Source of the DNA: Eledone cirrhosa
Taxonomy: Eukaryota
Length of the DNA: 64,000 nt
Direction of reading: 5' to 3'
Assembly: GCA_964016885.1 (NCBI GenBank)
Contig: OZ024751.1
Coordinates: 38,316,001-38,380,000, forward strand
Of the stretch, positions 26,128-27,097 are shown piece after piece (the first letter of the stretch is position 1; every line of letters begins with the position of its first letter). Position numbers and translations under genes: made by a program. The notes under the pieces are model-generated. The model made no database searches and was not told the DNA's origin. It saw only the letters and a list, made by a program, of their open reading frames with translations.

Positions 26128-27097
26128 TTTGTTTTTTGTTCCGGATCATACCGCTCTGGATTCAAGTCTTACTGGCTTCAACGTTGCAAATCAATACTTC
26201 AAGATCGATATATGAGTGTCAGTACTTGGTTTGTTAACTCTTCTCTCTCATCCCATTTTCTTTCATTCTCTCCCGCTCTATCTCTGTCTTTCTCTACCCC
26301 CCACCCCAATCTCTCTCTCTCCGTTTCTTTCTGAAATAAATCGGCTATATTCAGACCTGGAGTTGGGGATAGGCTTCGACAGTTTTAAAAGGACCAGACA
26401 AAGTGTATGTCAGGATGGCTCCCTTACGACACCACAAATATTTAAGGGCCTTGATTATATATATCACTAATTCACTGGAACTTATGCTATCAACTTCAAC
26501 ATTTAAAAACTACTCACAATTTGCGTGGGGTTTGAACTTAAAATATATAAAAGTTGCCCAACGTAATTAATTGAACTCTCTATGGTCCAGGATAATGACG
26601 AATCTGTTGATATTAATGAAAATGAAGTATTGAAGGGACATAGGTTTCAGAATAACGATTATGCGGACGATAATAGATGTATATGTTTACCTTTCATTAG
26701 GCACAGAGCCAAATTTTCTACCGAGAAAAGTTTCCTCTATTAAATAGACGAATATATCGCTAATGCTTCCTTCATCAATACTGTTCTTATTTTAAATAAT
26801 TACAATACTACTACTAATAATAATAATAATGATTTCATTTATTGGCCACAAGAGCCGACATATAGGGGACAATACAAAAGACTGGGACAGTGGGGTTTTA
26901 CAGAAAAATCTAGTAAACAATATGAATAACAATAACAAAGTAACAATAAAGTAACAATAAAATTACAACAAGAAAAAATACCCCCAATAGGAGGGATGAC
27001 CACCCAGGGTTCGCTCCGGTACCCCACCAGCCCTGAACGACCCGACGCTTCGAGAGCACCCTGGAAGGGCACCCCTCTCCTCCTCAAATTTACCTAC

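Follow-up and report, generated by a model that had tools for sequence, protein, structure and literature searches.

A probable octopod LINE of the L1/Tx1 group and an abundant SINE with similar short 3′ tails and a probable common ATT target

Several described systems come close to the pair of retroelements reported here. In crocodilians, the animal Tx1 element Tx1-Mar has been inferred to mobilize SINEU; as at our locus, LINE and SINE have a target preference in common, and tandem SINEs (SINEU-3) sandwich one duplication (Kojima 2015, PMC4494074). Unlike the SINE described here, SINEU ends in poly(A) and has snRNA heads, and the available text of that paper records no LINE with the 3′ end of SINEU-1. 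Other Tx1 groups target microsatellites: Kibi targets TC, and Koshi targets TTC (PMC4494074, PMC3812793).

Stringent pairs in which the LINE belongs to the L1 clade have been published for maize/sorghum and for Chlamydomonas (PMC3472496). In maize LINE1-1_ZM with ZmSINE2/3, and in Chlamydomonas L1-1_CR with SINEX-3_CR, an L1-clade LINE and a tRNA SINE have a 3′ end of some 50–80 nt in common, much as here, and a hairpin was proposed as the signal (Ohshima 2012, PMC3472496; PMC3747384). These pairs differ from ours in coming from plants and algae, in hairpins that are stronger (−10.8 to −17.7 kcal/mol) and show several compensatory changes, and in that their LINEs end in poly(A). Among the pairs tabulated in 2013 there is no mollusc and no partner that is an animal L1 or Tx1 (PMC3747384). 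A stem-loop followed by a short terminal repeat, without poly(A), is also the arrangement in zebrafish ZfL2-1/ZfL2-2 and eel UnaL2/UnaSINE, in which the loop is read specifically and the stem generically (PMC4176376). Those elements are of the L2 clade and their recognition was shown by assay and binding, whereas here the ORF2 is of the L1 group and recognition is predicted.

The octopus tRNA SINEs OR1, OR2 and OK (classes tRNA-Deu and tRNA-CORE) resemble the SINE of this study, which we call SINE A and which is putatively tRNA-type too, in being abundant in octopus DNA. SINEs as a whole make up 11.6% of the O. vulgaris genome (PMC13282606). No pairing of an octopus LINE with a SINE appears in the available text of PMC4758252, PMC8967140, PMC4824008, PMC5804259, PMC9115989, PMC5786205 or PMC13282606. 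An earlier, sequence-only reading of this DNA knew of no description of the pairing; our literature search found no report of this LINE/SINE pair either (Repbase, Dfam and subscription papers lay outside the search, and an earlier notice is possible there). We did not find the combination of an animal Tx1, a shared tail and no poly(A) in print, but its novelty is narrowed by close precedents, namely the stringent L1-clade pairs (PMC3472496) and the SINEs moved by Tx1 (PMC4494074).

The window—the whole stretch of 64,000 nt that was analyzed—is AT-rich (31.6% GC), with abundant microsatellites, and all DNA-level tests were made within it. Its main feature for our purposes is a LINE of 5.7 kb that runs on the minus strand from 32495 to 26831 (Table 1). 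In contigs from four public runs, depth is high over the LINE, from the bin 26765–26969 through the bin 32300–32504, and low beyond; 44,883 contigs cover the LINE in the best of the four. Because this depth is confined to the element, the LINE is a repeat family with the ends 32495 and 26831. Contig depth cannot rank the parts of the LINE, and the extra depth at bin 26765–26969 was not counted as evidence. No contig differences fall inside the hairpin among the matches listed, which we counted neither for nor against its conservation.

This copy is broken. Its ORF1 candidate has no Pfam match and is likely frameshifted close to a C-terminal Cys motif; near 31241 a 1-nt difference occurs in 16 contigs. 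ORF2 matches RVT_1 in two pieces (E 7.6e-14 and 4.4e-07) and carries a zinc-binding C-terminal domain, zf-RVT (E 4.6e-06). In the damaged copy Exo_endo_phos gives a weak match (E 0.027); the APE endonuclease is clear in three of three relatives (41–43% identity), and the LINE's frames map to the same region. Intact relatives of ORF2 carry endonuclease, RT and zinc-binding domains together. By tblastn, ORF2 is interrupted by two frameshifts and three in-frame stops, and it seems to have suffered a deletion close to where the endonuclease begins; the three stops, in 904 codons, give the LINE a crude age of about 3% (0.6–9%).

The closest named relative of ORF2 is a protein of Argonauta hians (64% identity), which points to a likely octopod host, and further protein relatives reach 77–82%. 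In a tree of 120 rows, the LINE and 34 relatives group with support 100. That tree holds no named Tx1, CR1, L2 or RTE references, and so we only infer a place in the Tx1 clade as against the L1 clade. Compared with solved RTs, the relative P0002 matches human L1 ORF2p at E 7e-68 and R2 at E 1e-21, and no CR1, L2 or RTE structure is among its matches. Judged by its RT, endonuclease and zinc-binding domains and by the closeness of this relative to human L1 ORF2p, the LINE belongs where the sequence-only reading had placed it, in the L1/Tx1 group. A well-supported sister group (P0001–P0034) consists of intact ORF2 proteins of 1150 aa with 34–49% identity, some of them with hundreds of members. 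A piece of the LINE family (P0179 / P0273, 67% identical) is annotated as a protein of a Herbaspirillum MAG (MCP3653585.1, WP_288064025.1), and is likely host DNA binned as bacterial.

Wider scans added little. A Tx1-type profile detected no other LINE pieces in the window. The ORF2 alignment found 17 distant loci in metagenomes (24–47% identity over the best segment), none matching the LINE end or the SINE, and a 16-nt motif found 120 loci in prokaryote genomes, about the chance expectation, none with LINE or SINE similarity. Two scans of viral contigs gave no matches, and protein collections, compared with the LINE end translated in antisense, gave no candidate and one unrelated repeat protein.

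Table 1. Coordinates of the LINE, its parts and the SINE A copies in the window
Feature	Position	Strand	Basis
L1/Tx1-group LINE, near full-length, broken	26831..32495	-	Flanking ATT duplication and contig depth step
ORF1 candidate, N part asparagine/threonine-rich	31018..32289	-	ORF list
ORF2 (APE endonuclease, RT, zinc-binding C end)	27098..30312	-	RVT_1, zf-RVT, weak Exo_endo_phos, tblastn frames and stops
LINE 3′ UTR	26857..27097	-	ORF2 stop to hairpin
LINE terminal hairpin, predicted, GGCT / CTTGT / GGCC	26844..26856	-	Pair probabilities, shuffle z
LINE spacer AATAAAT-GAAATC, up to junction	26831..26843	-	Sequence
(ATT)5, 3′ target duplication and at most a short tail	26816..26830	-	Sequence
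(ATT)4, 5′ copy of target duplication	32496..32507	-	Sequence
Second LINE-type 3′ tip, 32 nt, 5′-truncated, then (ATT)n	49200..49231	+	31/32 nt identical
SINE A tandem trio, copies parted by ATTATTTT	22084..22537	-	
SINE A tandem trio, 7.6%/14.1%/25.9% diverged, youngest 5′	52356..52987	+	
Full SINE A, 17-nt duplication from junction	59653..59838	-	
5′-truncated SINE A, 15-nt duplication from junction	9201..9254	-	
Full SINE A	60477..60659	+	
5′-truncated SINE A	20812..20907	+	
Two truncated SINE A copies flanking ATT repeat; first ends 424, without hairpin	291..501	+	
Old, diverged SINE A	25346..25498	+	
Old SINE A ending GAAATC, stem broken	62765..62865	+	

The LINE ends GGCT-CTTGT-GGCC-AATAAAT-GAAATC (26856–26831, minus strand) and passes directly into (ATT)5, just as the sequence-only reading had described. 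The second tip, alike at 31 of its 32 nt, has a perfect GGCC/GGCC stem, and these two tips are the whole LINE side of the tail comparison. SINE A is the commonest short repeat in the window: about 190 nt long, non-coding, interspersed, and represented by 14 3′ ends in the 64 kb. Motifs resembling A and B boxes can be made out by eye in the alignment; neither ARAGORN nor Rfam finds a tRNA in SINE A. It may resemble the Deu-type SINEs, a superfamily marked by a central Nin/Deu domain. Five full young copies diverge by 4.8–8.2% from the majority of the others, and two older ones by 14.1% and 25.9%. An extra segment precedes the tail in old copies, and highly decayed matches to the head or center of SINE A, with no recognizable tail, lie outside the 14 ends (46022–46151, 56444–56525 and 24156–24219).

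The last six bases of the young copies are GAAACA, and those of the old copies ending at 52779 and 62865 are GAAATC, like the LINE, which confirms another detail of the sequence-only reading. The middle copy of the 52356–52987 trio ends in this way, and no other SINE copy matches the LINE so well. In the same trio the youngest copy lies upstream, as it should if new copies kept inserting into the 5′ duplication. The copy that has no hairpin (291–424) still stops at the usual junction, and a long ATT repeat follows it.

The window also holds a second tRNA-type SINE family (23745–23880 and 32805–32980, with weak copies at 5709 and 35617), whose 3′ end and flanks are different, one copy being followed by CA/TA repeats; it likely has another LINE partner, and its contrast with SINE A speaks for the pairing proposed below. 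Four long inverted repeats (11877–11999, 15956–16330, 19944–20131 and 44111–44455), with arms of 50–161 nt or more that are 84–98% complementary, lie mostly beside TA microsatellites, and are either fold-back elements or features of the assembly. An Rfam match to mir-1 at 11746–11815, just above threshold and on both strands, is a perfect 34-nt palindrome centered on a TA repeat, and is likely false.

Where the insertions end, in GAAA(C/T)(A/C), a duplication starts at once. Duplications of at least 8 nt, counted from the exact junction, are present at six of the 14 SINE A ends and at the LINE; the rate expected by chance is 0.0009. Only two are clean and non-repeat, of 15 nt (9201) and 17 nt (59653), and in these cases no 3′ read-through letters stand ahead of the duplication. 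Three more of the six sit in one tandem trio and one in an ATT repeat, and the LINE's own duplication, of 12 nt, is also in an ATT repeat. At two further SINE A ends an 8-nt match is displaced from the junction, by 4 nt and by 9 nt, and six ends have no match that long; two junctions (20906 and 60662) were placed 1–3 nt off, and a duplication there may be missed. (ATT)n follows both LINE tips (n = 2), and (ATT)4 lies upstream of the long copy.

Poly(A) follows none of the 16 LINE and SINE A ends, as had been noted before; the longest run of A within 30 nt is five. That ATT is a tail was considered as the whole story and rejected, since the duplications begin at the junction. The target-site duplication begins with the ATT found there, which is mostly not a tail. 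LINE (two tips) and SINE A thus both appear to insert at ATT(AT) sites, and this is a new and independent line of evidence beside the shared tail.

The tails were compared by 3′-anchored scores against the LINE. Seven of the 13 hairpin-bearing SINE A tails score higher than all 793 control ATTA sites, and the scores of the other six are reached by 1–12 of the 793. When the LINE tail is dinucleotide-shuffled, the SINE scores are reached in 0–23 cases per 1000, and those of the top seven in 0–1, figures to be read with the caveat that the SINE copies are not independent and the LINE/SINE pair was picked after the fact. The best SINE tail, that of the old copy ending at 52779, agrees with the LINE in 29 of 42 columns. 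Aligned at greater length, with 8 nt of ATT included, this copy is 77% identical to the LINE across 48 nt (E 0.007), which falls inside the range of 35–61 bp and 72–95% at which bivalve LINE/SINE pairs have been accepted (PMC11481361). The young SINE A tail agrees with the second LINE tip in 24 of 41 columns. By these sequence comparisons, the similarity of the last 30–40 bases is beyond chance: real but short, and best for the old copies. The crude ages overlap, at 4.8–8.2% for young SINE A and 0.6–9% for the LINE, and on this reckoning the periods in which the two were active can overlap as well.

Our preferred reading, to which we give a probability of roughly one in two, is that an ORF2 of the Tx1 lineage nicks ATT sites and mobilizes SINE A by way of the shared tail; in this explanation the LINE is an octopod element of the L1/Tx1 group. 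The last 30–40 bases of SINE A are likely derived from this Tx1 LINE lineage. The APE endonuclease would nick 5′-(A)TAAT^N on the bottom strand; ORF2 would bind the predicted CUUGU hairpin, holding the RNA and fixing the start point, much like L2 elements with their own stem-loops (PMC4176376); and the AUUA that lies 16–17 nt behind the loop would pair with the freed TAAT primer. Such AUU:TAAT priming is the counterpart of the pairing of poly(A) with the T-tract in mammalian L1. Each duplication would recreate the target, giving rise to tandem arrays. Old SINE A, with its GAAATC end, may have moved with this LINE family or an ancestor of it, whereas young SINE A, with its GAAACA end, was perhaps mobilized by a sister Tx1 family, a switch that is suggested because GAAATC gives way to GAAACA and because the oldest copies match the LINE best. 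The O. vulgaris library contains 80 L1-Tx1 families (PMC13282606).

The sequence-only reading had proposed that this LINE family recognizes a structured 3′ end and mobilizes the SINE. Tail similarity beyond chance and the common ATT target bear it out in part; a weak hairpin, a single stem change, and agreement of only 24 of 41 columns in the young SINE hold it back.

Another LINE clade—CR1, L2, RTE-BovB or Dong/R4—might instead supply the working partner, the Tx1 end having become alike by tail exchange or through an old common origin. Young SINE A tails resemble the Tx1 LINE only loosely, and other clades are numerous and have lately been active in O. vulgaris: recent insertions there number 1129 for Dong-R4, 787 for CR1, 421 for L1-Tx1 and 182 for RTE (PMC13282606), and TAA microsatellites are the target of Dong (PMC3812793). 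The partners published for mollusc and Deu-type SINEs point the same way, being CR1, CR1-Zenon, L2 and Nimb in bivalves (PMC11481361) and CR1/L2-type LINEs for the Deu type (PMC3747384), and this counts against pairing with a Tx1. We nevertheless think a partner from another clade rather unlikely, for the Tx1 LINE itself sits within an ATT duplication, like SINE A. Duplications of 15–17 nt would suit L1/Tx1 better than CR1 or L2, and the TAA repeat of Dong would lie on the sense strand and so run opposite to the ATT found here.

How much the hairpin contributes is a separate matter. TTGT is kept in 13 of the 14 SINE A 3′ ends (CTTGT in 11 and TTTGT in two), end 424 being the one without a hairpin, and nine of the 13 ends that bear one retain all three inner pairs. 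The earlier statement that loop and stem persist in most copies stands to that extent, qualified by the four of 13 stems that are broken and the one missing hairpin. The claim of identical geometry does not stand. Both LINE tips have 17 nt between the end of the loop and ATT, but nine of 13 SINE A ends have 16 nt, two have 17, one has 15, and one has no junction. The stems differ too, with CTTGT as the loop, being GGCY/GGCC in the LINE and TGGC/GCCW in SINE A; if GGC/GCC is taken as the stem, the loop in the LINE becomes 7 nt. Spacer letters vary across SINE A copies, and spacer length stays at 15–17 nt throughout. The stem difference between LINE and SINE is two-sided, with pairing kept, but it is a single event and no two-sided changes occur among the SINE A copies; stem covariation, suggested earlier as a check, is thus seen between the families and not within SINE A.

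In predicted folds the terminal hairpin is weak and often outcompeted. Five tail folds compared with shuffles gave z from 0.38 to −1.06 (0.31 for the LINE), none of them more stable. In the context of full-length SINE A, the pair probability of the hairpin is 0.4–0.9 in three of seven copies and at most 0.08 in the other four; for the LINE it is 0.3–0.98, depending on context. This weakness, together with the copy ending at 424 and the lack of covariation within the family, is what could be expected if the partner were this Tx1 lineage with its recognition relaxed to AUU:TAAT priming and a short motif, the hairpin being a vestige; crocodilian Tx1, after all, moves SINEs with no common 3′ sequence (PMC4494074). 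We consider relaxed recognition unlikely. The loop letters and the distance from loop to junction are nearly constant from old to young subfamilies while the spacer changes, the stem has outlasted the two-sided change between LINE and SINE, and the clean duplications are free of 3′ read-through.

Chance or convergence of short AT-rich ends, with nothing but the target preference in common, is very improbable: a likeness of some 30 nt at 59–69% identity to one LINE family, in a pair chosen post hoc, leaves some room for it, but seven of 13 tails have scores that no control site and at most one shuffle in 1000 reaches, and the oldest SINE A copies match best, last six bases included.

Mobilization of SINE A by a Tx1-lineage ORF2, the reading we prefer, extends in its boldest form to a tentative claim, which we hold at somewhat less than even odds: that this may be the first animal L1-group retrotransposon to recognize a structured 3′ RNA end rather than poly(A), and that its octopod Tx1 lineage, aimed at a new ATT-microsatellite target, may have driven the major octopus SINE expansion through a hairpin module of about 30 nt. 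In Ohshima's proposal, stringency is the ancestral state of the L1 clade, and untested animal lineages are where to search; a structured tail on an animal Tx1 would open this proposal to testing. If the pairing is true, ATT would join the known microsatellite targets of Tx1, and the tail would serve as a compact RNA tool for an L1-like ORF2, allowing comparison with the human ORF2p structures already solved. It would also name the motor behind one large family of octopus SINEs.
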